Shown one piece after another: positions 14,237 through 29,545 of a DNA stretch of 64,000 nucleotides. The stretch is from positions 1 through 64,000 of the IMG/VR virus record IMGVR_UViG_3300033487_000003; one strand, 5' to 3'. Source of the DNA: a virus. Taxonomy: Duplodnaviria > Caudoviricetes. The stretch's first letter is position 1, and every line of letters starts with the position of its first letter. The translations under genes and the position numbers were made by a program. The notes under the pieces were generated by a model that was given only the letters and a program-made list of their open reading frames with translations, was not told the DNA's origin and searched no databases.

Positions 14237-14962
14237 TCAGTCGTTGTCAGTCCAGGAGAACAGAAGCTCTTCCTCGACGGGCTCATCGTCCTTGTCGGGA
14301 GTACGGAGAAGAATGACTTCAGAGTCATCCTCAACATCCAGTCCCGAACTACGCAGTATGTCCAAAAAGTATGACTTGACCGAATTCTTCACACCTTCCA
14401 TGATCTCCGTGAGCGTAAGACGGACCACCTGATGGTCTGTATCTTCCTTCAACCGATACATACTGGAAGAAATCTGCGCCATATTCATAGCATCCTGAGC
14501 GATACGCTTCACCCTCCTGAGCTCCACCCCCATGGCCCTCGGAGATACCAGACTGATCGGACGCCGATCGATCATGCTCAATCCCGCCGCAGCCAGTACC
14601 TGTGTCACCAGCTCTTCTGACAGTCCAGGATCGGTCAGGACAACTCCGATACTTCGGCTGCCCCGCTGGTGGATCAGCCGGTAGTCCGAGCGGTCGACCT
14701 CCGCATCGTCGAGAGCACTTCGCACCGTCCGGCTGATCCCCTCATCGAGAAGACGGAAGAGCTGAGCGTCCGATACCCCCAACACCCTGGCCGCGCGAGT
14801 CATCCGACCACGCTGCTTACCAACCAGCCTACGTAACGCTGCGTTCCGGGCTGCCATGAGTTTCATTTCTTCCTCGCGCCACGTCTCACGGGCAGTGCGT
14901 AATGCTGTATCGGCCGCACGGTAGATCTCGATCTCTAATTCAGATATCTCAATCGTGGTCAT
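14237..14962 (-). CDS. putative HTH DNA-binding protein
   Basis: RMTRAARVLGVSDAQLFRLL HTH-like segment; GAGGAG SD. Confidence 0.6.
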   Translation of the reverse strand: MTTIEISELEIEIYRAADTALRTARETWREEEMKLMAARNAALRRLVGKQRGRMTRAARVLGVSDAQLFRLLDEGISRTVRSALDDAEVDRSDYRLIHQRGSRSIGVVLTDPGLSEELVTQVLAAAGLSMIDRRPISLVSPRAMGVELRRVKRIAQDAMNMAQISSSMYRLKEDTDHQVVRLTLTEIMEGVKNSVKSYFLDILRSSGLDVEDDSEVILLRTPDKDDEPVEEELLFSWTDND

Positions 14963-14983
14963 GATCTTCTCCTCATGTCGTAT

Positions 14984-15030
14984 CCCACCATCCTACGTTG
15001 CGACGTAACCAAACACAACGGGGGGGAGTC
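14984..15030 (-). promoter_or_regulatory. promoter with left-arm half site (CCCCCCCG-TTGTGT-17 nt-TAGGAT)
   Basis: same C-run adjacent to the -35 as the cassette promoters; right arm missing. Confidence 0.65.
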
Positions 15031-15070
15031 GACAAGAGGGGGGTGCCACCACGAACACCGAACCAACGAC

Positions 15071-15100
15071 AAGAGGGTCTACCAGACGGTAGACCCTCTT
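15071..15100. terminator. 13-bp hairpin
   Basis: AAGAGGGTCTACC/GGTAGACCCTCTT. Confidence 0.45.
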
Positions 15101-15333
15101 ACCCCCCAGGAGGACACCACAGCACCCTATGCACCGGTATCCCGCGCTCAAAGCGTCAACGAACATCAATCACAGACCGACATCCGTCCCATCACGCATC
15201 ATCACCTACCAACAGAGCCCAGACCAGTAACCAGCCAGCCAAAGGAAACCAGCCAACCAGACACCCAAGATCAACGCACGGACATGATCACATCCACCAT
15301 ACAATGATCTTCACAGAAACCGGGGAGGTAGTC

Positions 15334-15924
15334 ATGGGAATACAACGGCTTGACCTCGCCACCGACCGAGACCCCTGGGACCGCCAACCAAACGAATCAG
15401 CCAAACAGTACGGACGATTCACGTGCTACCGAGATCTCGGCCGGATACGCACCCTAACCCAGGTACACAAGATCCTGACAGCCAGCGGAGACACACTCAA
15501 ATACGGCACACTACGACAAACCGCCTACGAGTTCAGGTGGACCACCCGCGTCGAAACCTGGGACATCTCCCAAGACCAGGCCGATCGCGAGCAGCTCATC
15601 GCCGAACGCCGCGACATGATCAAACGGCACCGATCCGTCGCCAGCGCACTCCTCACAAAAGCCATACAAGCACTACAAATCATCCCAGTAGCCGAAATGG
15701 AACCCGCAGACGTCGCCCGATACGTCAAGCTCGCCACCGATATCGAGCGCATCGCCATCGGCGAACCACAACGCAGCATCGCCCTCACCGGCCCAACCGG
15801 CGGCCCCATCCAAACCGAAGATCTCACCAATCTGACCGCAGAGGAACGCCGCTCACGTCTTGCAGAGATCGTGTCCGAGCTGTCCCGGAGAGCTGGAATC
15901 GGTGAGGCAGACGAGGACGAATGA
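15334..15924 (+). CDS. terminase small subunit-like protein
   Basis: PWDRQPNES.K.Y..F..YRDLG..RT..QV...RW..RV..WD pattern typical of actinophage TerS-like genes; TACAAT -10 and GGAGG SD. Confidence 0.65.
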   Translation: MGIQRLDLATDRDPWDRQPNESAKQYGRFTCYRDLGRIRTLTQVHKILTASGDTLKYGTLRQTAYEFRWTTRVETWDISQDQADREQLIAERRDMIKRHRSVASALLTKAIQALQIIPVAEMEPADVARYVKLATDIERIAIGEPQRSIALTGPTGGPIQTEDLTNLTAEERRSRLAEIVSELSRRAGIGEADEDE

Positions 15925-15969
15925 TCACATCCATGCCATGATCGGATCACCAGACAGAGGGGGACCACC

Positions 15970-16260
15970 ATGTCACACGACCAGCAACCACCAGCAACCC
16001 CCATACCAGCATCCACCGGACAAACCATCGGACACCTCGCCGCTAGCTTCGCCGCTACCGTGATTGTGATGCTGGTGCAATTCGGGGTACCGATCAGCCC
16101 CGAGCAGCAAGCCGCCATCCTGTCAGTGATCGTGACCGGATGGGCGTTCGGCTCAGCGATATACGCGTTTTGGCACCGTTCCCGAACCAACACCATCGCC
16201 ATCGCCGCTCACCAGCAACAGGTCACAGCACCGACCCTGCCAGCGGCCGAACCACGCTGA
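15970..16260 (+). CDS. holin-like two-TM membrane protein
   Basis: two TM helices, QQAAI..V and basic RSRT after TM2. Confidence 0.5.
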   Translation: MSHDQQPPATPIPASTGQTIGHLAASFAATVIVMLVQFGVPISPEQQAAILSVIVTGWAFGSAIYAFWHRSRTNTIAIAAHQQQVTAPTLPAAEPR

Positions 16261-16284
16261 CCCAACCACCCGAGAGAGGCACAG

Positions 16285-16971
16285 ATGGGAGACCTTCCAC
16301 TCGCCGACGGCACCCACAGAGACGGCACCCACAGAATCCGCATGTTCCCGCTCGACGAAATCCCCCCGGCTGATCACAACCCGAAACTTCACGACATCAT
16401 CCACCTACGCCAACTCATCAGCCGTTTCGGATACACCACACCTGGACTGCTCGACGACCGTACCGGGAGACTGATCGTGGGCCACGGCCGCCGTGAAGCA
16501 CTCCTCGCGATGCGAGCCGACGGCGAAACCCCACCCCGGGGAATCGGGATAACCGACGAAAACCAGTGGCTAGTACCCGTGATCACCGGATGGTCATCGA
16601 CGAGCGACGCCGAAGCCGCCGCCTACCTGGTCGGCGACAACCAGGCCACCATCAACGGCGGATGGAACAACGAAGAACTTCAACACCTTATCGACGAGAT
16701 CGAAAAGGTAGATCCCACCCTCGTTGAGATGACCGGCGTCGACCTCGACGCCCTGAACGACCTGATCAAAGCGAACGAGCCCCCGGACCTAGACGACCTC
16801 GCCGCGAAACTGGGAGATCCTCAGGAGTCCGACACGTGGCCATCAGCCCGGATAACCGCCCCACCCCACGTCATCGCCGCGTGGCGTGACCAGGTCTCCC
16901 AGTACGCCGACGACGATCACCCCGAGGCATCCGCGCTCGCCGCGCTCCTGGAAGTCGACCTCTGCTTATGA
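16285..16971 (+). CDS. ParB/Sulfiredoxin N-terminal-like domain protein
   Basis: NPKLHD...SRFGYTTPGLLD.RTGRLIVGHGRREAL...AYLVGDN..GGW. Confidence 0.75.
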   Translation: MGDLPLADGTHRDGTHRIRMFPLDEIPPADHNPKLHDIIHLRQLISRFGYTTPGLLDDRTGRLIVGHGRREALLAMRADGETPPRGIGITDENQWLVPVITGWSSTSDAEAAAYLVGDNQATINGGWNNEELQHLIDEIEKVDPTLVEMTGVDLDALNDLIKANEPPDLDDLAAKLGDPQESDTWPSARITAPPHVIAAWRDQVSQYADDDHPEASALAALLEVDLCL

Positions 16972-17855
16972 TAGAGATCGTTTCCTACCCGATCGACGTC
17001 CTGACCTCGTATCACTACTTCCGCACGGATGCCGAACGCATGGCCAATCTCCACGACCAGGGCATCATGCGGTTCGTCGCCGACTCTGGCGCGTTCTCCG
17101 CCCACCAGCTCGGCGCGACCATCAAACTCGCCGATTACGCGGCGTGGTGCCACCAACTCCGCAGCCGTCTGCACTGGTGCGCGGCCCTCGACGTCATCGG
17201 CGACCCACAAGCCTCCTGGACCAACTGGACAACTCTCCAAGATCGCCATCACCTACAGACCGTACCAACCCTGCACGCCGGTACCGACCCGAAATGGCTC
17301 GACGCATACGCCCGACAAGGCGTCGACCTCATCGGCCTCGGAGGAATGGCAGGTCTCGGCCAGGCCCCCCGCGCATACCGATGGGCGGTCCACACGATTC
17401 GACACGCTAGGGATCACTGGCCCCAGATGCGATTTCACTTCTGGGGAGTGACCGGCTGGCAGTTCCTGGAAACCCTACCGGCCTGGTCAGCGGACTCATC
17501 CGGTTTCCTCGGTAACGCCCGTAGGTGGGGAATAATAAGGATCTTCAATCCAAAAACTGGAAAAGTCGTGCTCGCTAGTCTGCGCCGCGACGCCGGAAAC
17601 ACCCTCTACAAGATCGCCCCCCTGCTCCGGGAGACCTACGGAATCGACCCGGCAACCATCCAGACATCCGGTGAGACGAACCGCGCCACGATCATGCGCC
17701 TAGCCATCGGCTCATCCCAGCGCTACGCCACCTGGCTACAACAACGCCACCAGGTGACAGCACCTGCCAGCTACCACGGCGAGGCGACCACCGGACCACG
17801 CATCTACGTCGTCTCGGGGAAGATCGGAGACCTGGAAGCGGCGGTCCACGAATGA
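16968..17855 (+). CDS. TGT-fold (DpdA-like) guanine transglycosylase, paralogue 1
   Basis: SYHY, ADSGAFS, LDVIGD, PTLH, IGLGG, FHFWG and SADSS motifs; no CxCxxC Zn site. Confidence 0.7.
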   Translation: MIEIVSYPIDVLTSYHYFRTDAERMANLHDQGIMRFVADSGAFSAHQLGATIKLADYAAWCHQLRSRLHWCAALDVIGDPQASWTNWTTLQDRHHLQTVPTLHAGTDPKWLDAYARQGVDLIGLGGMAGLGQAPRAYRWAVHTIRHARDHWPQMRFHFWGVTGWQFLETLPAWSADSSGFLGNARRWGIIRIFNPKTGKVVLASLRRDAGNTLYKIAPLLRETYGIDPATIQTSGETNRATIMRLAIGSSQRYATWLQQRHQVTAPASYHGEATTGPRIYVVSGKIGDLEAAVHE

Positions 17856-18742
17856 AACCGTTTTACCCCATTGACGCGCTGATCAGCCATCACTATTTCC
17901 GCGAACCCCGCCAGGTCGCCGAGGTCATGCAGCTCCAACAGGCCGGCATCACCCGCTTCATCGGAGACTCCGGAGCGTTCTCCGCCCTGTCCCTCGGCGC
18001 GACAGTCGACCTACCAACCTACGCGACCTGGTGCCGTACCTGGTGGAACCGGTTCTGTTGGTGCGCGTCTCTCGACGTCATCGGCGACCCTCGCGGTTCC
18101 TGGGAGAACTGGCACACCCTCCGCGACAAGTACGACCTACTTACCGTCCCAACGCTGCACGCTGGGTGCGGAACGGAATGGTTGGACGCGTACGCCCACG
18201 AGGGCGTTGACCTCATCGGTCTCGGAGGAATGGCCAGCAAGGTCCAGGCTCCCCGCGCGTTTCGGTGGGTACTGGAGATGATCCGCCATGCTAGGGATCA
18301 CTGGCCTGTGGTGCGGTTCCACCTCTGGGGAGTGATCGGACATAACTTCCTGGAAACCTTTCCCGTCTGGTCAGCGGACTCCTCTGGCCTGCTGATCAAG
18401 GCCGCGAAGTTTGGGGATCTACGGCTGTTCGACCCAGCACTGGGTGCCAACCGCACCGTGCCGTTACGAGGTAACGCTGTGTACAAGATCGGAAGACTTT
18501 TACGGAAAACCTACGGCGTCGACCCTGCGATGATCGAGCGCTCGCACAGCGGTAACCGTGATCTGCTGATGCGTCTCCAGATCACCTCGGCGCAGTACTA
18601 CGCGGACTTTCTCCAACGCCGCCACCAGGTCACCCCACCGGTGATGTTCCGAGACGGGGCAGCCGCCCGGTTGCGTGGTCCCAGACTGCACATCGTCGAT
18701 ACCAACTTCGACCAGCTCAAACCGATGCTCAACGAGCGGTAG
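17852..18742 (+). CDS. TGT-fold (DpdA-like) guanine transglycosylase, paralogue 2
   Basis: same motifs (GDSGAFS, LDVIGD, PTLH, IGLGG, FHLWG, SADSS); shares DNA identity blocks with paralogue 1. Confidence 0.7.
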   Translation: MKPFYPIDALISHHYFREPRQVAEVMQLQQAGITRFIGDSGAFSALSLGATVDLPTYATWCRTWWNRFCWCASLDVIGDPRGSWENWHTLRDKYDLLTVPTLHAGCGTEWLDAYAHEGVDLIGLGGMASKVQAPRAFRWVLEMIRHARDHWPVVRFHLWGVIGHNFLETFPVWSADSSGLLIKAAKFGDLRLFDPALGANRTVPLRGNAVYKIGRLLRKTYGVDPAMIERSHSGNRDLLMRLQITSAQYYADFLQRRHQVTPPVMFRDGAAARLRGPRLHIVDTNFDQLKPMLNER

Positions 18743-18780
18743 CCGGATCCCAGACAGTGATGGTCTGGGATCCGGCTACC
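18738..18780. terminator. bidirectional terminator hairpin
   Basis: 18-bp inverted repeat GGTAGCCGGATCCCAGAC between convergent genes. Confidence 0.75.
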
Positions 18781-18796
18781 GACCGGCTAGGAAATA

Positions 18797-19204
18797 TCAG
18801 AAAGTATCGAGTTGCTCGTCTCCCCTGACACCTTGCGGATGATCAGGGCACCCACACGACGCGTAGGAATTAATAATGATGTCGGCGTAGACGACGAACC
18901 GCGTCGCGTCGATGACCTCCTTAGCCGTCTGTAGCGTCACCCAGTTCGGCCGGTTACGGAGCCTGCCGAGATTAGCCAATGCCCGCTCATGGTTGGTGAT
19001 CGCTCCCCGCAGCCGAGCGACGATCTGAGTGTCGCGCACACGATCGGACAACGCGTCGACAATGTCCTGACTCTTCGCGTAGAACCTCGCCGTCTTGGCT
19101 GCACTGCGCTCATCTGGCGGACGCATCTCATAGCAGATCTCAGCCTCGACGGTGGTGTACAGGTCGTCGATCAGCTCGCCGATGGGACGATCGGACAGCG
19201 ACAT
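18797..19204 (-). CDS. hypothetical protein
   Basis: GAAAGG SD; own promoter TTGCGA-17-TAAACT. Confidence 0.55.
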   Translation of the reverse strand: MSLSDRPIGELIDDLYTTVEAEICYEMRPPDERSAAKTARFYAKSQDIVDALSDRVRDTQIVARLRGAITNHERALANLGRLRNRPNWVTLQTAKEVIDATRFVVYADIIINSYASCGCPDHPQGVRGDEQLDTF

Positions 19205-19235
19205 GGTGATCACCTTTCTGTGTGGTCGAACTGAC

Positions 19236-19291
19236 CATCACAGTTTACGGTCCCCCGAAATATTTCGCAACGGGTATGGGTAGTATGAGGT
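19236..19291. promoter_or_regulatory. divergent promoters around a CCCG...CGGG palindrome
   Basis: minus: TTGCGA-17-TAAACT; plus: TAGTAT + 5 nt + ATG 19292. Confidence 0.65.
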
Positions 19292-19831
19292 ATGGCACAA
19301 CATCGACCATCACGCTTCACCCTCCCCGCATTTCCCCCACCAGCCCCATCGTCGACCCGCGCACCACGACGCCGAATCGAAGCAGGCTTCCAAGCAGCGG
19401 TCATCGACCTCATCACCTATCGGCAGCTGTGGTGCTTCCACCTGACAGACTCCCGTACCGCCCCGGCGGGCTGGCTGGACCTGACGATCCTCGGCCAGGG
19501 CGGTATCCTGTTCCGCGAACTCAAGACCGCGACCGGACGCCTGTCCAAGGCGCAGAAACATGTCATCGGACTGCTAGAAGCCGCCGGACGAGACGTCAAG
19601 GTCTGGCGGCCCGTAGACCTCCAGTCAGGGCTGATCGTCCGGGAACTCGACACGATCCGTCGACCACGTCCCCGACTCCAACCCGAGGACGTCGCCTGGC
19701 TAGTGCGCGAGCTACGCGGCTACGACCAGGCACGTCCAACCGGAGACCAGGTTTGGTCCCACTGGCGGAACCTGCTAGAGATCATGCTCAAAGTTGACGT
19801 CGGAACTCTCGACACCACCACGAACCACTAG
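19292..19831 (+). CDS. VRR-NUC domain nuclease
   Basis: EAGFQ..V.DL, GWLDL.I, FRELKT.TGRLS.AQ and VWRP motifs. Confidence 0.8.
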   Translation: MAQHRPSRFTLPAFPPPAPSSTRAPRRRIEAGFQAAVIDLITYRQLWCFHLTDSRTAPAGWLDLTILGQGGILFRELKTATGRLSKAQKHVIGLLEAAGRDVKVWRPVDLQSGLIVRELDTIRRPRPRLQPEDVAWLVRELRGYDQARPTGDQVWSHWRNLLEIMLKVDVGTLDTTTNH

Positions 19832-19840
19832 GAGAAACAG

Positions 19841-20122
19841 ATGTTGGTGACTATTCAGGTCGAGTCTGACTCGACCGTACTGGAGATCCGTCAGGAGAAT
19901 TTGCTACCACATATGACATCACAGAAGACATTCGACGCAAACCTGGTTTCCGCCGTAGTGACGATGGGCGAGTGCGCTGGTCGGATGATCGCCGCTCTGG
20001 TAGCTGGGGGTGAAACGCCGATAGACGTCATGATCGAAGAGTTTCAGAAGAAAGTCATTCGATCGGCGCGGAGCAGCATCTCTGATACGGCGCACGTCTG
20101 TGATGGGACTGGGTGCCGCTGA
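19841..20122 (+). CDS. hypothetical protein
   Basis: AGGAGA SD; terminator follows. Confidence 0.55.
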   Translation: MLVTIQVESDSTVLEIRQENLLPHMTSQKTFDANLVSAVVTMGECAGRMIAALVAGGETPIDVMIEEFQKKVIRSARSSISDTAHVCDGTGCR

Positions 20123-20147
20123 GGGTTCCTCAGGTTTCGTATTTACC

Positions 20148-20183
20148 GTGACCCCGAACAGTGTGTTCGGGGTCACATTTTTC
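20148..20183 (+). terminator. intrinsic terminator
   Basis: GTGACCCCGAACA/TGTTCGGGGTCAC + ATTTTTC. Confidence 0.8.
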
Positions 20184-20191
20184 GGGAGGGA

Positions 20192-20227
20192 GTGACAGAA
20201 CACTCCGGGGGGACGTAGACTTGTGGC
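20192..20227 (+). promoter_or_regulatory. cassette promoter, right arm only (leaderless)
   Basis: GTGACA-18-TAGACT-6-ATG with CGGGGGGACG in the spacer. Confidence 0.75.
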
Positions 20228-20800
20228 ATGACGACAATGACCCTCAAGACCGAAAACGCCCAGATCATCGTGGAAGTCATCAGCTACATGTCCTCCAGGA
20301 CGGTCCTCCGTGGGGTTACGGAAATCAACACCCTGCTCGATGACGCCATCACCTACGTCACCAACAGGCACCGCTACAACCACCGCTACAACCACAACTG
20401 CGCCGACTCCAAAGGGTGCCAGTTTGGCAATCCGGAGCACATCGACCGTCTGCTCTCCGAAGCCAAGTACTACATCGTGAACTTCGTTCGTGTTTACGCC
20501 ACTCCCACCTCCAAAGAACTTCGGGAACTGGCGGATCTGATCGAGGCAGCTAGCAATCTCTACCTCGGCATCCTCGCCGCGCGCGACGAGGGCATGCTTG
20601 CCATCCCCGAGGACGCCGAGGTAGAGATCAAGTTCGGACATGCGAGCGGCTCCGACATCACGATCGTCGTATCCGCGATCGACCCGGGTGGTCTCCCCAT
20701 CCTGGACCAGGTCCACACCGTGATCGGTGAAATCCTCGCCGACTCGACCTGGTGCGATTACACCCACGCCACCATCGCTGGTTCTCTGATCGCCCAGTAG
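20228..20800 (+). CDS. hypothetical protein
   Basis: leaderless ATG; internal 12-bp repeat (HRYN x2). Confidence 0.65.
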   Translation: MTTMTLKTENAQIIVEVISYMSSRTVLRGVTEINTLLDDAITYVTNRHRYNHRYNHNCADSKGCQFGNPEHIDRLLSEAKYYIVNFVRVYATPTSKELRELADLIEAASNLYLGILAARDEGMLAIPEDAEVEIKFGHASGSDITIVVSAIDPGGLPILDQVHTVIGEILADSTWCDYTHATIAGSLIAQ

Positions 20801-20822
20801 TCAGCCACCACCCAAATATCCC

Positions 20823-20870
20823 ACGTCCCCCCGTAGCGTCTATGCTATGGGGGGACGTATACTTGTGGGA
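20823..20870 (+). promoter_or_regulatory. palindromic cassette promoter
   Basis: ACGTCCCCCCGTAGC-GTCTAT-GCTATGGGGGGACGT; -10 TATACT; short leader with GGAGG. Confidence 0.75.
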
Positions 20871-20897
20871 GTACCGCACATCAAACCGGAGGACCCC

Positions 20898-21530
20898 ATG
20901 ACCAGAGCGAACTACCAAACCGGAGCGCTCCGCGCACTCAAATACCTGGCAGACAGTTCCATGAGCAACAACGTTCCGCTACGAACCAAAATCGAACACG
21001 TGATCGAATACTACGAACTGGTCGAGCTGAAAGACTTCGCCGACGCGATCGACTACGCGATGCACTACCTCGCCATAGCAGCGAGGCAGGTCCCCACCGC
21101 GTTCGTACCGTCGATGACCTCCGTCGCCGACCTCATCGAAGTCGACCGCACCTACACCATCGGATCAATCTGTCGACAGGCGATAGAGCTCATGACCTGC
21201 GACATGCCCCCCAGCATCCTCGATCACCAGCTGGCAGCGCAGGCTCTCCGAGGAATCGCCCACACCATCACCACGACACCCGGGGATACGATTCTGAATC
21301 TTCTCAACTCGGCCACGTTCGGCGCTCTGATCCGGAAAGAGCTTAAGCAACCCGGCTACCACGACGCCGACCACCCGAACTGCATCCGTAGAGCCATCTG
21401 CGCCAGACTCACCAAGGCCGCAGACCAGGAAGTCAACCTGGAGAACTTCCCCCTGGACGTCGTCCCACTGACTAGCCTGGTTGGTCTGTTCAACCGGGCA
21501 GCGAACATGGTCGATCCGATCTGGCCGTAA
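20898..21530 (+). CDS. hypothetical protein
   Basis: GGAGG SD before ATG 20898. Confidence 0.65.
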   Translation: MTRANYQTGALRALKYLADSSMSNNVPLRTKIEHVIEYYELVELKDFADAIDYAMHYLAIAARQVPTAFVPSMTSVADLIEVDRTYTIGSICRQAIELMTCDMPPSILDHQLAAQALRGIAHTITTTPGDTILNLLNSATFGALIRKELKQPGYHDADHPNCIRRAICARLTKAADQEVNLENFPLDVVPLTSLVGLFNRAANMVDPIWP

Positions 21531-21551
21531 CGGTCCAGAACCCAGACGAGG
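21474..21551 (+). repeat. 78-bp direct repeat, copy 1 (copy 2 at 22709-22786)
   Basis: 70/78 identical by manual alignment. Confidence 0.9.
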
Positions 21552-21641
21552 TAGACGACCTCATAGACGATGCCCTTGGCATCTGACCAATCCACCTGGC
21601 CCGATGGACAACCACCGGGCCGCAACCACGAAAGGACAACC

Positions 21642-22631
21642 GTGAGCAAAATCTACTTCCACACCCTGACCCACACGGTAGAACTCATGGGCTCCGAACG
21701 CGGCTGGCTCCGCGCTGTGGCCGCGAACACCGCTCGACCCTGGTGGGGCCTGGACGGATCAATACCAACAAGCGAATGGACCTCACACCGGGCATTCGAC
21801 ATCATCGACATGATTACCCCCGGGACGTGTGGCCAATACGTCATCGACGTCGCCAGATCCGTCCGGAACGGCCGATACGACGACGCCACGATCAAGACCC
21901 TCATCGACGTCCTCGCCACCTGCCTTCGCGTCAACGACGTCCCATTCCGCGTCGGCGACCACGTCGTGTCGTCGGCGAACGTCGAACTCAACACCGCGCT
22001 CGCCACCGGCAACGACCTCGTGTGCCTTGCCGCGAAGATCCACGGATGGTGTGAGATCCACCCCTGGTTCGAGGAGACCGACCGAGCGTGGTGCGCTGAC
22101 ATCATCGAACGCGCCCTCACGGCCGGCGTGTACCGCTCCGGTCTGTGGTACACCGGCCACTGCGGGCAACGCACCTGGTGCGAGCAGGGATGGACGGATG
22201 TCGTCGCCCTTCTCCGTGACACCACCACACACCCCGGACCGGTAGTCCTGTCCTACTCGATTTGCGACGGATTTCCGAATCCCGACGTAGCCCTCACCAT
22301 GCCGACCTGGCCGAACGGAATCCCCAAGGACTGGAATGCATTGACCACGGTCCAGCAAGAAGAACGCCGTACGGCGATCACGGCCTGGTACAACCTCCCC
22401 GAATCCCAACAGTGGGAGACCGCCATGGACGGTATCCGCCGTGACCAGTCATGGGCGAACATCGGACCGACGAACCTCACGACCACCACGTTTGGTCCGC
22501 CCATCACCCTGTTCGACCTGTTTCATACGGACAGAGTCGACCGAGTTCACGCGGCGTACGCCTCTGCCGTAGTAGACGGAAAAGCCGAAGATACGGCACG
22601 GAATGACCCGAGGAGAACAGGCGACAGATGA
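21642..22631 (+). CDS. hypothetical protein
   Basis: AAAGGA SD, GTG start; long ORF with protein-like composition. Confidence 0.7.
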   Translation: MSKIYFHTLTHTVELMGSERGWLRAVAANTARPWWGLDGSIPTSEWTSHRAFDIIDMITPGTCGQYVIDVARSVRNGRYDDATIKTLIDVLATCLRVNDVPFRVGDHVVSSANVELNTALATGNDLVCLAAKIHGWCEIHPWFEETDRAWCADIIERALTAGVYRSGLWYTGHCGQRTWCEQGWTDVVALLRDTTTHPGPVVLSYSICDGFPNPDVALTMPTWPNGIPKDWNALTTVQQEERRTAITAWYNLPESQQWETAMDGIRRDQSWANIGPTNLTTTTFGPPITLFDLFHTDRVDRVHAAYASAVVDGKAEDTARNDPRRTGDR

Positions 22632-22765
22632 CCAGCATGATCTTCAAGGTTGATCCGGAATCCGACGCCGACCGATACATGATCTAGTCCACCGTGAACG
22701 ACATGCCGAGCCTGGTCGGTTTGTCAAACCGGGCAGCGAACATGGTCGACCCGATCTGGTCGTAA
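22628..22765 (+). pseudogene. chimeric gene fragment with internal TAG
   Basis: MTSMIFKVDPESDADRYMI*STVNDMP then SLVGLSNRAANMVDPIWS, which copies the C-terminus of the 20898 gene. Confidence 0.55.
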
Positions 22766-22786
22766 CAGTCCAGAACCCAAACGAGG
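22709..22786 (+). repeat. 78-bp direct repeat, copy 2
   Basis: matches 21474-21551. Confidence 0.9.
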
Positions 22787-22818
22787 GACGCCCCGAAAAC
22801 ATCCGGGGCGTCCCTCGT
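22781..22818. terminator. bidirectional terminator hairpin
   Basis: 15-bp inverted repeat ACGAGGGACGCCCCG between convergent genes. Confidence 0.75.
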
Positions 22819-22832
22819 CGTTCGACCACCCG

Positions 22833-23744
22833 CTACCCACCCAGCATAGCCGCGAACGCAGCCTGATGACGCACCTCATCACCCCGGATCTCGACGAACA
22901 GCTCAGCTTCCGCCACATCACCAACAGCCGTCGCCTCACCCGCCCACGTCGCATACGAGGCGACCGCACCATCCTCAGCCGCGAGCGCCGACGTGAGATT
23001 CTCCGTGGTGTCGACCGAGACCAGGCCAGCAAGACTGGCCAGCTCAGCGAAGTGCTCGTACAACTCGATCTCCGACAGACGCAGGAAGAACGCCCCAACG
23101 GTCGTGTTACCGCGCTGATAGGCAGCTTGCGAGAACATCAGGTACCGCGCCGACGCGAACGCCTCACCACGCATCGCCGCCCACAGATTCGTCAGGGTCC
23201 GTCCCGTTGACTGCGTCGGTCCGGCAACGATCGCAACCGGACTGACCGTGGGCAGTACTGGCCACCTACCGCCGACTCTCACGACGTGTCGGACCCGCGT
23301 CAGCGTCCTCTGGTGCGAGCACTCGTCTCTGGCCAACTCCGCGAACAACTCCTCAGCCACCACGTCTCCGTCAACGCCAGCCTGAGCAGAGAACCCCGGA
23401 TAGAGCGTCCTGGCCTCGGCGCGCTCATCGACGATCGCCGTCCCGAGATTCGCCACGTCCGAACCGACCAGCTGGTACGCGGCGGCCAGCTGGGAAAAGT
23501 GATCGTCTCTCTCCTCGTTGGCGGTCGCGACCAGCAAGCTGGCGACATCCGGGTTTCCGGTAGCAGTCGCGCGTACCGACCAGGCGTGATATTCGGCGTA
23601 CGCAAGCGCCTCATCGTGCATCGCGGTCGACAGGTTGATAGTGGTCTGTCCGGACGTGGCGACTGCCGGATGACCCGACCCAGCGACCAGGGCGCAGACC
23701 AACCCGCCAGCAACGATCACGTTCGTCAGTGCTCTGAAACGCAT
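22833..23744 (-). CDS. secreted tandem rubrerythrin/ferritin-like di-iron protein
   Basis: Sec-type signal peptide (AVA cleavage site); two repeats of NL..AM..EA.A...Y / E..xH / E...Y / DE..H; no rubredoxin CxxC; AGGAGG SD. Confidence 0.8.
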   Translation of the reverse strand: MRFRALTNVIVAGGLVCALVAGSGHPAVATSGQTTINLSTAMHDEALAYAEYHAWSVRATATGNPDVASLLVATANEERDDHFSQLAAAYQLVGSDVANLGTAIVDERAEARTLYPGFSAQAGVDGDVVAEELFAELARDECSHQRTLTRVRHVVRVGGRWPVLPTVSPVAIVAGPTQSTGRTLTNLWAAMRGEAFASARYLMFSQAAYQRGNTTVGAFFLRLSEIELYEHFAELASLAGLVSVDTTENLTSALAAEDGAVASYATWAGEATAVGDVAEAELFVEIRGDEVRHQAAFAAMLGG

Positions 23745-24012
23745 TTCGTGTCCCTCCTACGATTGAGTGATGACTGGATTCACCATCTTGCATACCACCG
23801 AGGATGACTCCACGGCATCCGCCACGCAGCAATAAGGTGTCTATCTGCCGTAGGGCTACCCCATACGAGGTCTGATCGAGGACGGTTCGCGAGTGAGGAT
23901 GCTCCGGAGAAGGCGATCTGTCATACGCAAGAGGGGAGCGAATTACTTCGTCCAGTAGTTGATCAAGTCTAGGGACGCCGCGAAACGTAAGATAGCGGAC
24001 TACAAAGACTGG

Positions 24013-24056
24013 CCCCACCCGTTGTCGAAACCTACGGGGTAGGGTAGACTTTTGGT
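24013..24056 (+). promoter_or_regulatory. variant palindromic cassette promoter (leaderless)
   Basis: CCCCACCCG-TTGTCG-17-TAGACT-6-ATG with CGGGGTAGGG arm. Confidence 0.75.
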
Positions 24057-24404
24057 ATGGCGAACGACATCACCCACACCTACACCAACGACGGCAACGA
24101 AAACCCCTACACCGTCTATCGCATACTCCAGGAAACCGGCAACAGGCTCATGACCACCGACAGCGTGGTCGAAGCGATCGAAGCAGCCATGACCGAAATC
24201 GTTCCCAACGTCTCCGATCCCGGAGACCACTTTGCCGCAGCCCTCGACGTAGCCGTAAACGCCGGCATCTCCTTCTTCGACGGAATCACCGACCAGCCCT
24301 GGCTGGTACGTCGTGGACGCGAGGAGACCCTTCTTGCCGAGGCTCTCGTCTACGCTCGTCAGCTGTGCCCCGCCGTATTCACCTTCACCCCGCGTATCGG
24401 CTGA
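24057..24404 (+). CDS. hypothetical protein
   Basis: leaderless ATG; terminator follows. Confidence 0.65.
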   Translation: MANDITHTYTNDGNENPYTVYRILQETGNRLMTTDSVVEAIEAAMTEIVPNVSDPGDHFAAALDVAVNAGISFFDGITDQPWLVRRGREETLLAEALVYARQLCPAVFTFTPRIG

Positions 24405-24413
24405 TCAAACACT

Positions 24414-24449
24414 GAAGTGCCCGCTAACCTTCGTGGTGGCGGGCACTTC
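24414..24449. terminator. hairpin between convergent genes
   Basis: GAAGTGCCCGC/GCGGGCACTTC. Confidence 0.6.
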
Positions 24450-24471
24450 CCATTTTCAAGACCAACAAAGG

Positions 24472-24726: not shown

Positions 24727-24796
24727 GGGGAGACCCTCCCTACCCCACGAACAACATCATGATCATACTTAGGTGACAACCCCATCGGGAGGAACC

Positions 24797-25546
24797 ATGT
24801 CTTATGCCGTCGTCGTCCTGTCCGGAGGACTGGACTCCACCGTGGCGCTCTGGAGTGAGCTGCTGACCGCCACGATCGATCTTCGGCTAGGGCCCACGAT
24901 CGAAGAAAGATGTGCCAGAGGTGTCACCGCCGTAACTGTCGATTACGGCCAACGTCACCGCAGGGAGATCAGCGCCGCGCGCGCGGTGGTCGAGTGCTGG
25001 CAAGCTGAAGCCGCCCACCGTATGAGCGAAGGACGGCGAGCTATCACGCTCGACCACGTGATTGTCGAGGCGCCGAGCCTCGGCCACGTGCTGTCAGGGT
25101 CTGCGCTTACCGACCAGACGATAGCCGTCCCCCACGGTCACTACACGGCGCCCACGATGGTGGACACGATCGTCCCGAACCGAAATATGATCATTTCCTC
25201 GATCGCGGCGGGAATCGCCGTGGCGCGTAAAGCGGAACGCCTCGTACTCGGCGTTCATGCTGGGGACCATCCGATCTATCCCGACTGTCGTCCAGAGTTC
25301 GTGCAGTCGCTACAGCACTGCATTCAGGTCGGCACGGGAACACGACTTCATGTAGATGCCCCGTTCCTGACCATGACGAAAGACCAGATCGTCAGAATGG
25401 GCGCCGATATGGCCACACCCATGAATCTGACATGGTCGTGCTACCAGGGCGGCAACAAGCACTGCGGAAAGTGCGGTACCTGCGTGGAACGACGCGAGGC
25501 GTTCTCCCTCGCGAACGTAAGCGACCCAACCGAATACGAGGAGTGA
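24797..25546 (+). CDS. queC: 7-cyano-7-deazaguanine synthase QueC
   Basis: LSGGLDST, DYGQRH, VPNRN, YPDCRPEF, TWSCY..HCGKCGTCVER. Confidence 0.95.
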   Translation: MSYAVVVLSGGLDSTVALWSELLTATIDLRLGPTIEERCARGVTAVTVDYGQRHRREISAARAVVECWQAEAAHRMSEGRRAITLDHVIVEAPSLGHVLSGSALTDQTIAVPHGHYTAPTMVDTIVPNRNMIISSIAAGIAVARKAERLVLGVHAGDHPIYPDCRPEFVQSLQHCIQVGTGTRLHVDAPFLTMTKDQIVRMGADMATPMNLTWSCYQGGNKHCGKCGTCVERREAFSLANVSDPTEYEE

Positions 25547-25547
25547 C

Positions 25548-26030
25548 ATGTATCGGATTACGAAACGGTGGAAGTTCGACGCCGCACACCAACTACACGG
25601 ACTCCCCGACGACCACAAGTGTGGTCGACTTCATGGTCACACCTACACCGTGGAAGTCGAGGTATCAGCGGAAGACCTTGACGATCGTGGATTTGTGGTC
25701 GACTTCGCCGACCTCGCACCGGTCAAGCAGCTGATCGACGGAGTTTACGATCATAGGTTCCTCAACGACATCTTGCCAGCGTCATTCAACCCGACGGCGG
25801 AGAATCTGGCCTCGCTGCTCTACGCGCATATCACGATGATCTACCACGTGCGTGGTCGATCGGCTACGAATGACCCTATCGATCTTGAAATCGTCCTGCC
25901 ACGTTGCGAACCGCTCCTACTTCACAAGGTCGTACCACTACGGGAAGGGGTAGAGATCACCGCTATCCGCGTGTCGGAGACCGGATCCAGCTGGGCGGAG
26001 TACCGGAATGACCTCCCTGCCAGTCGTTGA
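25548..26030 (+). CDS. queD: 6-carboxy-5,6,7,8-tetrahydropterin synthase QueD
   Basis: FDAAH.L, CGRLHGHTY, DHRFLND, PTAENLA and SET motifs. Confidence 0.95.
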   Translation: MYRITKRWKFDAAHQLHGLPDDHKCGRLHGHTYTVEVEVSAEDLDDRGFVVDFADLAPVKQLIDGVYDHRFLNDILPASFNPTAENLASLLYAHITMIYHVRGRSATNDPIDLEIVLPRCEPLLLHKVVPLREGVEITAIRVSETGSSWAEYRNDLPASR

Positions 26031-26742
26031 GATCATCGGCCCTACCGTGCAGGGAGAAGGACCACGCGTCGGTCGCCGCGTCGCCCTGATCCGTCTCGGA
26101 GGATGCAATCTGACCTGCGAATCCTGCGATACCCGGTACTCCTGGGACGGTAGCGAACCAACAGTTCAGGCCGGAAACCAGGCGATCATGGAACAGCTGG
26201 CGGACGTCGCAGGGAAACACCCCCTGTACCAGGTCGTCATCACGGGTGGAGAACCGCTTATCCACCAAAATCGAAACGCGTTCCGGGAACTCGTCATCGG
26301 CATACTCGCTCGGGGTATGTCGGTAGAGATCGAGACGAACGGCACGATCGTCCCCGCGCCATGGTTTCAGCCCCGACTGGTCGCGGGTGGTCTCGACGTC
26401 GTGGCGGTGTCGTTCTGCGTGTCTCCAAAGATCGTGGGAGGGCTCGCGACCGATCCCGAACCGAAACGGATCAAGGGAAACGCATTGCGTTGGTTCGCAG
26501 CGTGTGACTGCGCCACATTCAAGATCGTTTGCCGGACCGTGGACGACGTCACCCGTATCGGCACCTGGGCCGACATCAACCACATCAACCGCCACCAAAT
26601 CTGGATCATGCCGGAGGGTGCCACCTGGAATGATCACATCACACGAGCGCGCGCGCTCGTCGACCGCATCCTGACCGAGGGAATGCATATCTCTTCCCGG
26701 CTACACCTGGGACTGTGGCCAACCACGATGAGGGGACGTTGA
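26008..26742 (+). CDS. queE: 7-carboxy-7-deazaguanine synthase QueE (radical SAM)
   Basis: TVQGEG, GCNLTCESCDT (CxxxCxxC), ITGGEP, IETNGT, SPK, RLH. Confidence 0.95.
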   Translation: MTSLPVVEIIGPTVQGEGPRVGRRVALIRLGGCNLTCESCDTRYSWDGSEPTVQAGNQAIMEQLADVAGKHPLYQVVITGGEPLIHQNRNAFRELVIGILARGMSVEIETNGTIVPAPWFQPRLVAGGLDVVAVSFCVSPKIVGGLATDPEPKRIKGNALRWFAACDCATFKIVCRTVDDVTRIGTWADINHINRHQIWIMPEGATWNDHITRARALVDRILTEGMHISSRLHLGLWPTTMRGR

Positions 26743-27338
26743 TGACCGCAGCCATGGAGGGCGAACCCAAACACGATGCGGAAGATGCCCTATACCGCAA
26801 TCTCCTTCACTTCATGGGACTAACCGCTCACGTCGATGACCAAACCGCGACCCGCTACGTCCGAGCGCTACGACAACTCACCTACGGGACGGCGGTCGAT
26901 CCGGAACGACACCTCCAGGTGACCTTTCCCCCGGTCACAACCACCGCCGTCCTCGTGACCGTCGCGGACGTACCCTATGTCTCGATGTGTGCCCATCACA
27001 TGCTGCCCTTTTGGGGTACCGCGACGATCGCCTACCTACCCAGACCAGGAGCGAAGATCGTCGGACTGTCAAAAATCAGTAGATGCTTCCGAGAGCTGGC
27101 GGCACGTCCTCAGGTGCAAGAGCAGCTGGGTCAGCAGATGAGCGACGCGATTGCCAGGAATTTGGACGTCGATGGCGTGGCCGTTGCGATCTGTGGAACC
27201 CACACCTGTATGGCGCTACGGGGTGCCACCACGGGAATCGGAGCACGGATGGTGACGACGAGCAGTTCTGGTGAGCTGGAACGAGAGCCCTGGCTGGGAC
27301 AGTTCCGCAGCATCGCGGATACCGTACTCAGAGGGTAG
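26742..27338 (+). CDS. folE: GTP cyclohydrolase I FolE
   Basis: SMCAHHMLPF, GLSKI.R, RPQVQE.L and HTCM..RG motifs. Confidence 0.92.
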   Translation: MTAAMEGEPKHDAEDALYRNLLHFMGLTAHVDDQTATRYVRALRQLTYGTAVDPERHLQVTFPPVTTTAVLVTVADVPYVSMCAHHMLPFWGTATIAYLPRPGAKIVGLSKISRCFRELAARPQVQEQLGQQMSDAIARNLDVDGVAVAICGTHTCMALRGATTGIGARMVTTSSSGELEREPWLGQFRSIADTVLRG

Positions 27339-27826: not shown

Positions 27827-29545
27827 ATGACAACGTCCCAGCTACGAGAACCCTGGACGATGGCAGACGCCGAACTACTCGCCGAAGCAAGGGAACTTCA
27901 GCGCCAAGACGACCAGGACGCTGCCCACGATCCCGCCAAACTCCTACACCACCTCACCCCAACCACCTACCGCTACCGCACCCACCTGAAAGTCATCTCG
28001 TCCGCCCTGGTCGACGTCCGTCAGCAGCACGACGCGCGCACCAGCGTTCACGGACCCCGACTACTCATCGAAGAACCACCACAAACCGGAAAAACCGTTA
28101 CCGCCGTGGTCGGAGCGGCCTTCTGGTGGCTCATCCACCACCCCACCCACCGAATCGTCATCGGCTCACACGGCGACGCCCTCGCCGTCGACCGGGGCAG
28201 CGACATCAAAAAACTCGTCGAGGAACACGGCGACCGCTACGGACTCAAACTTGCCAGGGGCTCCACCAGCAAACAAGACTGGCGACTGGCAACCAGAGGC
28301 GGCGTCAAGAGCGTTGGTGTCGGTACCGGCATCGCAGGATGGCCAGCTGACGTCGTATTCGTGGACGACCCGCACAAAAGCAGACAGGAGGCTGACAGCA
28401 TCGTCAGCCGCGAGCGAGTCTGGAAGTGGTTCAGCGCGGACATCACGTCACGACTGGCACCAGGAGCCCCGGTCATCCTGATCATGACTCCCTGGCATCC
28501 CGACGACCTCGCCGCACGGCTCATATCAGAACAGGGCCGAATCGAAGAAAGCGGCAGGTGGCGGGTCCTACGCATGCCAGCCTTCTGCGACGATCCGAAA
28601 CGTGACCCCCTCGGCCGCAAATTCGGTGACCCCCTGCCACACCCCTTGATCCACCCCCGCGACACCAAATCACTCATCGACCACTGGAACGGACGCCGCG
28701 CGGCCTCGACCGTGCAGGACTGGCACAGCCTGTACATGTGCGACCCGAAACCCGAAGAAGGCGCCCTACTCCAACGCGCGCTTCTTCGCGAACGCCGCTG
28801 CTACATGACCAGCTCACCCAGTCACCCATGCGACCAGAAACCGACGAAAGCCGCCGTGGCGGTCGACCCATCTGGTGGTGGCCGAGACACCGCCGGGATC
28901 GTCGGTGGTTACCTTGGTTCCGACAAACGCCTCTATATCAGCCACGATTACACCGGCGTCATGCCCTCGGACCAATGGGCCAGAAGAGCATGCGAAATGG
29001 CCGTGCTGATCGATGCCGACCATGTGGTGATCGAAAACAACTTCGGTGGCGACATGGGTAGGTTGGCGATCCGCAGTGCGTGGGACGTCCTGATCCGAGA
29101 GGTCATGGAGCGCTACCAGAAGGCCAGAGACGAGGTAGGCCGCGACCGAACTCTTTCACCAGACACCCGACGCGCGGCCCTGGCCGAACTGGATGCCACG
29201 GTGCGCGCCTACCGGAGATTGTGTCCGAGGATCTCAACGGTCCGCGCCCGAAAGAACAAGCGGCTACGCGCAGAGCCGATCGCCCAGCAATGGACCGAAG
29301 ACCGCATCAGAACCGCCACATACCTACCCGAACTGGAAGATGAGTGGGCAACATGGCAACCAGACCTCCGCGACTCACCAGGTCGAATCGACGCGAGCGT
29401 GTACCTCGCCTACGACCTATTACCAATACCAGGAATGGGATCCGGTACGGTCCGCAAGGAACCAACCGGAAACCTACCCACCTCGGGTATGTCCCCGTTG
29501 GGTGGATCGAGTGGGGGAGTGTCGAGCCTCGGCCCACTCGGATGA
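27827..29545 (+). CDS. terL: terminase large subunit
   Basis: Walker A PPQTGKT, Walker B VFVDDP, MTPWH.DDL, RNase H-like VAVDPSGG, IENNFGG and SPGRIDA. Confidence 0.92.
   Translation: MTTSQLREPWTMADAELLAEARELQRQDDQDAAHDPAKLLHHLTPTTYRYRTHLKVISSALVDVRQQHDARTSVHGPRLLIEEPPQTGKTVTAVVGAAFWWLIHHPTHRIVIGSHGDALAVDRGSDIKKLVEEHGDRYGLKLARGSTSKQDWRLATRGGVKSVGVGTGIAGWPADVVFVDDPHKSRQEADSIVSRERVWKWFSADITSRLAPGAPVILIMTPWHPDDLAARLISEQGRIEESGRWRVLRMPAFCDDPKRDPLGRKFGDPLPHPLIHPRDTKSLIDHWNGRRAASTVQDWHSLYMCDPKPEEGALLQRALLRERRCYMTSSPSHPCDQKPTKAAVAVDPSGGGRDTAGIVGGYLGSDKRLYISHDYTGVMPSDQWARRACEMAVLIDADHVVIENNFGGDMGRLAIRSAWDVLIREVMERYQKARDEVGRDRTLSPDTRRAALAELDATVRAYRRLCPRISTVRARKNKRLRAEPIAQQWTEDRIRTATYLPELEDEWATWQPDLRDSPGRIDASVYLAYDLLPIPGMGSGTVRKEPTGNLPTSGMSPLGGSSGGVSSLGPLG

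Follow-up and report, generated by a model that had tools for sequence, protein, structure and literature searches.

The 64,000-nt stretch of DNA analysed here (hereafter the window; positions 1 to 64,000 of the IMG/VR record IMGVR_UViG_3300033487_000003, Caudoviricetes) carries a Rosebush-type phage dPreQ0 DNA-modification cassette in which the DpdA gene is duplicated. Gene content, protein fold, catalytic residues, the retention of both DpdA copies, the recurrence of such arrays and the linkage to a gene for a ParB-like protein are direct observations. That these genes serve the dPreQ0 modification of DNA is very likely, with the DNA substrate and the preQ0 base judged from homology and context. 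For the complete reading, a dPreQ0 cassette with two active DpdAs that insert the same base in different site contexts and are assisted by a ParB-fold helper, we see an even chance.

The genes with coordinates given here are all encoded on the plus strand. A TerS-like gene (15301..15924; phrog_6299 terminase small subunit, E 1.9e-27), whose start is uncertain with a frame open back to 14998, lies 360 nt upstream of the gene for a 228-aa ParB/Srx-fold protein, a putative DpdA helper (16285..16971; RBS GAGAGG), with a small hydrophobic ORF between the two. The genes for DpdA-a (16968..17855; 295 aa), a predicted DNA guanine transglycosylase of the DpdA1 type, and for its paralogue DpdA-b (17852..18742; 296 aa) follow. 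Both the ParB-like/DpdA-a and the DpdA-a/DpdA-b junctions are ATGA overlaps indicative of translational coupling, so that the two coupled paralogues described in an earlier, sequence-only reading of this DNA are indeed present. The genes for the synthesis of the modified base are found about 6 kb downstream of the DpdA pair: QueC, a 7-cyano-7-deazaguanine synthase in its plain form without a Gat domain (24773..25546; PF06508 3e-55; TIGR00364 9e-50, above the cut-off), the 6-carboxytetrahydropterin synthase QueD (25548..26030; PF01242 3.3e-31; phrog_2389), the radical-SAM 7-carboxy-7-deazaguanine synthase QueE (26008..26742; phrog_2076 6.3e-45; Radical_SAM and Fer4_12) and the GTP cyclohydrolase I FolE (26715..27338; PF01227 8.2e-41). 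As in Rosebush, the gene for the large terminase subunit TerL (27827..29545; phrog_38 2.8e-75) forms the downstream boundary of the cassette; its product is 47% identical to that of Saccharomonospora phage PIS 136, and no near-identical genome was found among GenBank phages. The genes that intervene between the DpdA pair and QueC are unrelated or unannotated and include a rubrerythrin/ferritin-like gene. Given this spacing of about 6 kb, co-regulation of the DpdA pair with the preQ0 pathway is not evident, and a scan of positions 14900-19400 for promoters and terminators returned nothing beyond chance.

Among the closest described counterparts of this arrangement is gp1-gp7 of the cluster B2 Mycobacterium phage Rosebush, in which genes for a ParB-like protein, DpdA, QueC, QueD, QueE, FolE and TerL follow each other in the same order and whose DNA contains dPreQ0 at about 28% of G (PMC6884629). 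DpdA-a is 42% identical to Rosebush gp2 (tblastn, E 7e-48), and neither phage has an amidotransferase or QueF, so that dPreQ0 is the expected modification here as well. The two loci differ in that Rosebush possesses a single DpdA, which is 385 aa in length and extends further at its C-terminus, whereas the window encodes two of about 295 aa; furthermore, the 6-kb gap in front of QueC and the upstream TerS-like gene are particular to the window, and its cassette does not lie at the end of the record.

Both DpdA copies match phrog_7068 (E 1.9e-65 for DpdA-a and 1.1e-60 for DpdA-b), a family labelled 'queuine tRNA-ribosyltransferase', as well as phrog_887, and they are about 54-55% identical to each other over their full length (E 1e-113). 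Neither copy was matched by Pfam (including TGT PF01702), NCBIfam or PADLOC, and searches of PDB sequences with phmmer and the family profile revealed no meaningful link to TGT or to the bacterial DpdA (bDpdA). The AF2 model of DpdA-a (pLDDT 92.7) adopts the (beta/alpha)8 TGT fold: archaeal, bacterial and human TGTs superimpose at Z 16.0-16.5 with an rmsd of about 3.0 Å over 237-245 residues (about 243), the human TGT 7nq4 at Z 16.3, and bDpdA 7ui4 is among the best Foldseek matches (E 1.7e-4). BFVD models of actinophage DpdAs match at E 1e-16 to 1e-22. The catalytic pattern of TGTs that had been noticed in both copies (DSG, LD, HxWG, DSS) corresponds to D39/G41, L74/D75, H157/G160 and D176/S178, and these residues are invariant in our 43-member family alignment; D39, D75, D176, H103 and H157 are kept in 200-202 of 202 relatives and in both copies. 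In an alignment with the E. coli TGT by hhalign (E 0.055), the DSG motif alone was aligned (D39-SGAF to D89-SGGF), and we infer the equivalence of D75 and D176 to the active-site Asp residues of TGT from motif order and fold. According to Thiaville et al., as far as cited in PMC6884629, a conserved His at 'position 196' tells DpdA/DpdA1 from DpdA2; both copies here have two invariant His residues, H103 and H157. On these sequence grounds, both look catalytically competent, and the idea of a pseudo-enzyme subunit was rejected, as every catalytic residue is intact in both copies.

The absence of a Zn site, which had been noticed in both copies, is real but does not distinguish the pair. A CxCxxC motif is missing from both copies, whose Cys residues are found at positions 61/71 and 61/69/71/106, and from all 202 relatives, the validated DpdA of CAjan included. 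Deletion of this CAjan enzyme abolishes dPreQ0. The missing Zn site sets the phage enzymes as a family apart from TGT and bDpdA, and it is no argument against activity since the CAjan DpdA is active without it. The DpdA1 enzymes of the Queuovirinae CAjan (Escherichia) and iggy (Pseudomonas), for which dPreQ0 insertion and defined short target motifs have been established (PMC7544227, PMC10484667), belong to the same Zn-less phage family and share its catalytic columns; the CAjan DpdA is 27% identical to DpdA-a (tblastn, E 2e-9). They differ from the proteins studied here by this low identity, by being single-copy, by having no ParB-like neighbour and by their proteobacterial hosts. The DpdA of Salmonella Montevideo (7ui4; PMC10164549) is likewise a TGT-fold enzyme that inserts preQ0 into DNA, with an Asp/Asp/His/Asp site and an adjacent gene for a ParB-fold NTPase, DpdB, and both protein types have fold matches at our locus. 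It possesses, however, a CxCx2Cx22H Zn site and a large insertion, Ins8, neither of which is present here, and it is part of a system with DpdC-K restriction genes that have no counterpart in the cassette.

The gene content lends itself to the following scheme. FolE, QueD, QueE and QueC would convert GTP into preQ0, and after replication both DpdA paralogues would remove guanine from the double-stranded phage DNA and put preQ0 in its place. This would proceed by the double displacement of TGTs, in which D176 would be the nucleophile and D39 the general acid/base, and the base would be read by D75 together with a His residue. The resulting dPreQ0 would shield the phage genome from host restriction. 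[quoted passage not shown]

It had further been considered that the two enzymes might differ in the base they insert. One copy could then use preQ0 and the other CDG, ADG or a tailored derivative, so that two modifications would arise. DpdA2 enzymes accept any of preQ0, preQ1 and CDG (PMC10516641), and the unannotated and rubrerythrin/ferritin-like genes ahead of QueC could in principle tailor a base. Yet all six pocket motifs (DSGAF, LD, TLH, GGMA, HxWG and DSS) are identical in DpdA-a and DpdA-b, and where the copies differ beside the GGMA loop, the difference is not kept within the clade of DpdA-b. Moreover, QueF was not found on the contig, on which the 7-deazaguanine pathway consists of FolE-QueD-QueE-QueC only; QueC is without a Gat domain; and a search for tailoring enzymes at 20228-22631 with Pfam, PHROG, NCBIfam and Atlas gave no match. 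We therefore regard a division of labour by base as highly unlikely, and both copies would insert the same one.

The identity of the two copies drops to 33% at residues 181-210 and to 28% at residues 271-295, compared with 60-73% in the core, which bears out the reported divergence of their C-terminal parts. DpdA-b has a 3-residue deletion in the hairpin that follows the nucleophile, and the differences that are conserved within the two clades include F180/L180 and R186-W187/K186-F187, which lie in the helix right after the nucleophile. In bDpdA, this post-nucleophile position is where Ins8 starts, the insertion that bears Phe265, an essential residue of the DNA face. The identical DNA blocks mentioned in the sequence-only reading come down to one 20-mer that occurs exactly twice, 884 nt apart, with 0 occurrences expected by chance. 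It codes for the invariant LDVIGDP motif and is embedded in 300 nt of 73% nucleotide identity, so that its meaning is that of ordinary motif conservation, and gene conversion was rejected as an explanation.

Whether these differences matter for target choice has to be weighed against the variability of the family as a whole. In 11 of 13 independent pairs, the copies have diverged further in segment 181-195 than distance-matched controls have there, although this segment was chosen post hoc as one of 19 windows and the result would not survive correction. At residues 181-210, in what is the most variable region of the family, 21% of the controls have an identity as low as or lower than that of our pair. 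The extra divergence of this segment, which is presumed to contact DNA, is suggestive, a trend only. Evidence for the retention of both copies comes from phylogeny and codon substitutions. DpdA-a has an orthologue of 71% identity (P0003) and DpdA-b one of 74% (P0007), both probably from one other metagenomic phage, judging by single contigs of identical length. The a-clade and the b-clade each receive 100/99 support, and their stems are of nearly equal length (0.43 and 0.44). The dN/dS between the copies is 0.36, against 0.18-0.5 for orthologous copies elsewhere, values that are indicative only with a dS of 1.09 near saturation, and they point to purifying selection on both.

Under the reading we favour, the two copies would be retained for different short sequence contexts and would together cover more G positions than one enzyme alone. 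Precedent for such differences within the family is provided by the CAjan DpdA, which targets GA/GGC, and the iggy DpdA, which targets GA only (PMC10484667). That DpdA-a and DpdA-b differ in site preference is, in our estimate from these comparisons, a possibility that falls somewhat short of an even chance. The duplicate might instead have been kept for the amount or the sturdiness of modification at the same site with the same base, for instance through early and late expression or as a safeguard where a host inhibitor blocks one of the two, or it might be on its way to being lost. The identical pocket motifs would fit such redundancy, as would the location of the divergence hotspot in a generally variable region in which our pair is no outlier. 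Nevertheless, dosage duplicates are usually young or homogenised, and the copies described here are only 55% identical, have long and symmetric stems, each possess a conserved orthologue and both appear to be under purifying selection.

The wider family bears on this question from both sides. Among 120 non-redundant related loci, 21 (about 17%) contain two or three DpdA copies and about 83% a single one, which accords with the statement that one DpdA is the usual state and makes the tandem pair a minority arrangement. The prevalence of single-copy cassettes, the 28% of G that Rosebush reaches with one enzyme, and an array with one frameshifted copy (L103), from which it follows that copies do decay, all speak for redundancy. 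On the other hand, the pairs of Megan, L069, L094/95, L006/7 and L034-L074 each cluster within their own lineage and therefore reflect several independent duplications, and nearly all array copies retain their catalytic residues; the repeated origin and retention of two or three diverged copies favours a difference between them over a mere increase in amount. On balance, we consider redundancy or dosage unlikely as the reason for the duplication.

The only cultured phages in which we found a tandem DpdA pair are the Microbacterium phages Megan and Nicole72. Their genes gp1-gp10 resemble the present locus in encoding a ParB-like protein, two coupled DpdAs, a QueC-type protein, QueD, QueE, FolE and TerL, and both Megan copies match our model at TM 0.74-0.78. 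Their pair differs from ours in stemming from an independent duplication, as the Megan copies are mutual nearest relatives and about 28-32% identical to those of the window. The final base of Megan may differ, since its QueC-like gene encodes 455 aa. The tandem pair is annotated in the records of Megan and Nicole72, and we found no discussion of it in the literature.

A third possibility builds on the heterodimer raised beforehand: DpdA-a and DpdA-b would be obligate partners and only together make up the active DNA transglycosylase. The coupling by ATGA overlaps would yield near-equimolar amounts of the two proteins, TGTs are known to dimerise, and in eukaryotes two different paralogues pair up in the enzyme (to the extent that PMC6884629 and PMC10164549 cite this). 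With QTRT1 and QTRT2, joint action of two paralogues of the TGT fold is an established arrangement. However, QTRT2 is non-catalytic, and the eukaryotic pair has a Zn site and acts on tRNA, whereas catalytic residues are complete in both copies of the window and in nearly every array copy, so that no inactive subunit of the QTRT2 type is seen. In addition, bacterial DpdA is monomeric in the crystal and in solution, one copy suffices in most relatives, and some arrays contain three copies or copies with other genes between them (L069, L091, L078/79). An obligate heteromer is therefore quite improbable, and we retain the view of two individually active enzymes.

The ParB-like protein upstream of the pair matches phrog_620 (E 2.5e-21) and, at its N-terminus, phrog_498 (E 5.3e-21), and its AF2 model (pLDDT 91.8) finds PadC (Z 9.7), KorB (9.2), the ParB-N domain of pNOB8 (9.0) and Srx (8.5) as fold matches, together with ParB-CDP 6sdk (Foldseek E 4e-4). 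Its earlier designation as a ParB-N gene beside the terminase small subunit holds by PHROGs, fold and the position of the TerS-like gene, but not by Pfam, whose ParB_N model gave no match at E<=1. The protein contains nucleotide-binding-type motifs, NPK and G66-H-G-R-R-E-A, which read NPR and GxGRxxA in the 41-member family alignment. Its C-terminal half (residues 126-228) is helical and acidic, and neither an HTH nor a clear known fold was matched there. In PADLOC, the sole match was to an MTase_II N-terminal module (1.6e-11); the DpdB model was not matched and the DGQQR motif is absent. DpdB, the ParB-fold ATPase needed by the bacterial DpdA (PMC10164549), differs further in its size of about 390 aa and its SspE-like C-domain, compared with 228 aa and a GHGRREA motif here. 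The published DpdB model matched the same structures, namely PadC, KorB, pNOB8 ParB and Srx. By sequence, the ParB-like protein is not a member of the DpdB family; by analogy of fold and neighbourhood, it may work like one.

DpdA has the ParB-like gene as its immediate upstream neighbour in 77 of 87 loci (89%), wherever the cassette sits, and in some arrays this gene is found between the DpdA copies. No ParA-type ATPase was found in the entire 82.9-kb record, which is about 93% complete. Because of this adjacency and the missing ParA, a DpdB-like helper is likelier than a partition or packaging coupler. By analogy with DpdB, we consider it probable, with some reserve, that the protein assists DpdA, and it would act as an accessory factor that probably clamps or remodels DNA in an NTP-dependent manner and so lets the transglycosylases reach the duplex. 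Such a helper is no general requirement of DpdAs, since those of phages such as 9g, CAjan, nt-1 and VH7D are active in E. coli with no ParB-like partner.

Two conventional labels suggest a different interpretation, in which the ParB-like protein is a true partition, packaging or replication factor that merely shares synteny with DpdA, or in which tRNA is the substrate of one or both TGT-like enzymes. In its favour, the protein folds like a ParB CTPase, TerS and TerL are encoded nearby, and homologues are called 'ParB-like partition protein' and 'queuine tRNA-ribosyltransferase' in public records. Against this stand the missing ParA, the C-terminal half with neither an HTH nor a known fold, and the 89% adjacency to DpdA, including the arrays with the ParB-like gene between copies. 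As to tRNA, both enzymes are devoid of the tRNA-type Zn subdomain, no tRNA genes are present in the 64,000-nt window, and homologous cassettes modify DNA. We thus hold either variant to be extremely improbable, and the idea that the ParB-like gene couples modification to replication or packaging found no support, given the adjacency, the lack of ParA and the DpdB precedent (PMC10164549).

Going beyond this locus, the DpdA arrays of actinophages might represent a modular 'specificity expansion', with a distinct motif for each copy and a shared, obligatory, NTP-driven ParB/Srx-fold loader, hitherto unrecognised, as a minimal phage counterpart of DpdB. We offer this generalization tentatively, as it is rather doubtful in its full extent. 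If true, duplication and diversification would raise the fraction and the variety of protected G, and the array would reveal the protein elements by which the DNA context is recognised and account for the dependence of some DpdAs on a partner with the ParB fold.

How DpdAs choose their guanines is poorly understood, and target motifs have been published for two phage enzymes only. Diverged, co-resident and catalytically intact paralogue pairs such as DpdA-a and DpdA-b, and likewise the independent arrays in related phages, are ready-made comparisons for the determinants of specificity. At the same time, the near-universal ParB-fold neighbour poses the question whether actinophage DpdAs need an NTPase helper on duplex DNA. 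The answers bear on the evasion of restriction and CRISPR by phages, and on the use of DpdAs as sequence-specific DNA-modifying tools.

The locus in the window adds one more member to the Rosebush-type dPreQ0 cassettes, in which a DpdA transglycosylase is encoded together with the QueC/QueD/QueE/FolE preQ0 pathway. The window spans the initial 64 kb of an IMG/VR record of 82.9 kb (estimated 93% complete; about 60% G+C). A ParB-like gene (16285-16971, + strand, 228 amino acids) with the ribosome-binding site GAGAGG is followed by DpdA-a (16968-17855, + strand, 295 amino acids) and DpdA-b (17852-18742, + strand, 296 amino acids), and both junctions are ATGA start/stop overlaps. A TerS-like gene (phrog_6299, 1.9e-27) lies 360 nt upstream of the ParB-like gene; the small hydrophobic ORF between the two (15970-16260, + strand, 96 amino acids) may encode a membrane protein. 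Downstream of DpdA-b, about 6 kb of other genes (18797-24772) precede QueC, QueD, QueE, FolE and TerL, in this order, whereas QueC directly follows DpdA in Rosebush, Megan and most related loci. The insert contains an orphan (18797-19213, - strand), a VRR-NUC-like nuclease gene (19292-19831; phrog_93, 2.6e-12) and three orphans (20228-20800, 20847-21530, 21570-22631) with no match in Pfam, PHROG, NCBIfam or Atlas. It also holds a gene for a two-domain rubrerythrin/ferritin-like protein (22833-23744, - strand; PF02915, 1.8e-14), which matches the NCBIfam rubrerythrin and nigerythrin families below their cut-offs; such a gene, on the opposite strand inside a modification region, is unusual for a phage. 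QueF is absent from the 82.9-kb record. TerL is closest to its counterpart in Saccharomonospora phage PIS 136 (47% identity), followed by those of Gordonia, Mycobacterium and Microbacterium phages, and the window phage is consequently an actinobacteriophage; no near-identical genome is present among GenBank phages.

Full-length identity between DpdA-a and DpdA-b is 54%. Each has a match to phrog_7068 (about 1e-65 for DpdA-a and 1e-61 for DpdA-b) and, in tblastn searches, shares about 42% identity with gp2 of Rosebush-like mycobacteriophages and about 27% with the DpdA of phage CAjan. Despite blank searches of Pfam, NCBIfam, PADLOC and PDB sequences, even with a 43-member profile, our AF2 model (pLDDT 92.7, pTM 0.90) unambiguously predicts a TGT fold, superimposing on archaeal, bacterial and human TGTs with Z scores of 16.0-16.5 (rmsd about 3.0 Å over 237-245 residues). 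The Foldseek matches include the bacterial DNA preQ0 insertase DpdA (7ui4), and the best predicted viral structures are actinophage DpdA-type proteins, both Megan copies among them. The invariant family columns are D39-S-G, L74-D75, H103, G125-G126, H157-x-W-G and D176-S-S, with D39-SGAF aligned to D89-SGGF of E. coli TGT. In bacterial DpdA, Asp95 serves as general acid/base, Phe99 stacks on the base, Asp130 and His181 read it, and Asp256 is the nucleophile (PMC10164549); motif order and fold suggest that D75 and D176 hold the equivalent roles.

What the sequence-only reading observed is confirmed, and its interpretation as a possible dual-specificity base-exchange system is partly supported. 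Its coupled paralogues are indeed joined ORFs whose motifs coincide with the invariant columns. The Zn site that it noted as lacking is truly absent, as it is throughout the family: CxCxxC occurs in none of 202 members, including the CAjan DpdA, whose deletion abolishes dPreQ0. The 20-mer cited as an identical DNA block is present exactly twice; since it encodes the invariant LDVIGDP within DNA that is about 73% identical, it reflects ordinary conservation. DNA base exchange by these genes is very likely. That the two copies would insert different bases is unlikely, because their pocket motifs are identical and the only pathway encoded is that for preQ0, and a heterodimer finds no support.

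Different target motifs for DpdA-a and DpdA-b are plausible. Known targets of phage DpdAs are short (GA/GGC for CAjan, GA only for iggy; PMC10484667). Identity between the copies drops to 33%, with a 3-residue indel, at residues 181-210, a helix and β-hairpin directly after the nucleophile, and clade-specific substitutions mark this post-nucleophile segment (F180/L180, R186-W187/K186-F187). In bacterial DpdA, Ins8 begins at the corresponding position and carries the essential DNA-face residue Phe265 (PMC10164549). When co-resident paralogues were compared, segment by segment, with distance-matched non-paralogous pairs, identity in segment 181-195 fell below that of the controls for 17 of 19 pairs; with each duplication event represented by a single pair, it did so for 11 of 13 (sign test, p = 0.02; Wilcoxon test, p = 0.008). 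We regard this excess divergence as suggestive, not as evidence, because the segment was picked after viewing 19 alignment windows, the a/b pair itself is not unusual (21% of controls are equally low), and the region varies more than any other across the family.

Our database search found 251 relatives. Orthologues of DpdA-a (P0002, P0003) are about 72% identical to it and that of DpdA-b (P0007) 74%, while P0003 and P0007 share 55% identity, equal to that of DpdA-a and DpdA-b. Because P0003 and P0007 each come from a single JGI contig of 57,952 nt, they very probably lie together as a second instance of this pair. In the maximum-likelihood tree, the a- and b-clades (support 100/99 each) have symmetric stems (0.43, 0.44); hence, the duplication is older than the divergence from the nearest known relative, and the two copies changed at similar rates. 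A well-supported clade of 12 members contains both, but their sister relation is only weakly supported (86/42). Between DpdA-a and DpdA-b, dN/dS is 0.36, at a dS close to saturation. Two more probable pairs, each presumably co-located, are P0010/P0012 (5,371-nt ENA contig) and P0122/P0017 (9,921-nt Logan contig). They fall into the same clade, within which an older duplication, or several, may therefore have taken place.

Arrays of this kind recur. We fetched about 140 related loci from IMG/VR and metagenomes, and 21 of the 120 non-redundant ones carry two or three DpdA genes. Layouts include three tandem copies (L040:8956-11802), DpdA-ParB-DpdA-QueC (L069:9986-12385) and DpdA-QueC-ParB-DpdA (L091:184-3585); in one array, a frameshift splits the second copy (L103:9943-11767). 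Catalytic residues are kept in nearly all array copies, and orthologous copies in other lineages have dN/dS values of 0.18-0.5. Since pairs cluster within their own lineages in an approximate tree (Megan, L069, L094/95, L006/7 and the L034-L074 group), we infer that duplication happened independently several times (about 8 to 13 events by our own count, without formal reconciliation). Among cultured phages, a pair occurs only in Microbacterium phages Megan (NC_073368, L001 1-6307) and Nicole72 (OR159674), with a ParB-like gp1 annotated as hypothetical and tandem DpdA genes gp2/gp3; our literature search, whose coverage was not complete, found no mention of two DpdA genes in one phage. Their QueC-like gene (455 amino acids) is possibly a fusion of the Gat-QueC type, and in that case a base different from preQ0 would be expected.

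The ParB-like protein has no match to Pfam ParB_N; it matches PHROG ParB-like families and the ParB module found at the N-terminus of phage DNA methyltransferases. Its structure model (pLDDT 91.8) has a ParB/Srx-fold N-domain (Z scores of 9.7 to PadC, 9.2 to KorB-CTP, 9.0 to pNOB8 ParB-N and 8.5 to sulfiredoxin; background about 4), and its top Foldseek matches are ParB-CDP and Noc. The published DpdB model had matched these same structures (PMC10164549). The C-terminal half is without a clear fold match; an acidic C-terminal block is conserved in the family, as are the motifs NPR and GxGRxxA (NPK and GHGRREA in the window protein). The suggested coupling to packaging or replication is unsupported: no ParA was found in the 82.9-kb record, and profile HMMs detect such a gene immediately before a DpdA in 77 of the 87 loci with enough upstream sequence, including arrays in which it is located between the copies. 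The best reading is a putative DpdB-like helper of the transglycosylases, because preQ0 insertion by bacterial DpdA requires the ParB-fold ATPase DpdB (PMC10164549), although sequence, size and motif all place the protein outside the DpdB family, and proteobacterial phage DpdAs function without such a partner.

Collectively, the variant feature of this cassette, duplicated, diverged and intact DpdA genes with a conserved ParB-fold partner, is recurrent in nature and unstudied. Megan and Nicole72 are the obvious experimental system. The biology extends a system that is already known, and the locus lends itself to a clean, inexpensive experiment on the sequence specificity and helper dependence of DpdA.
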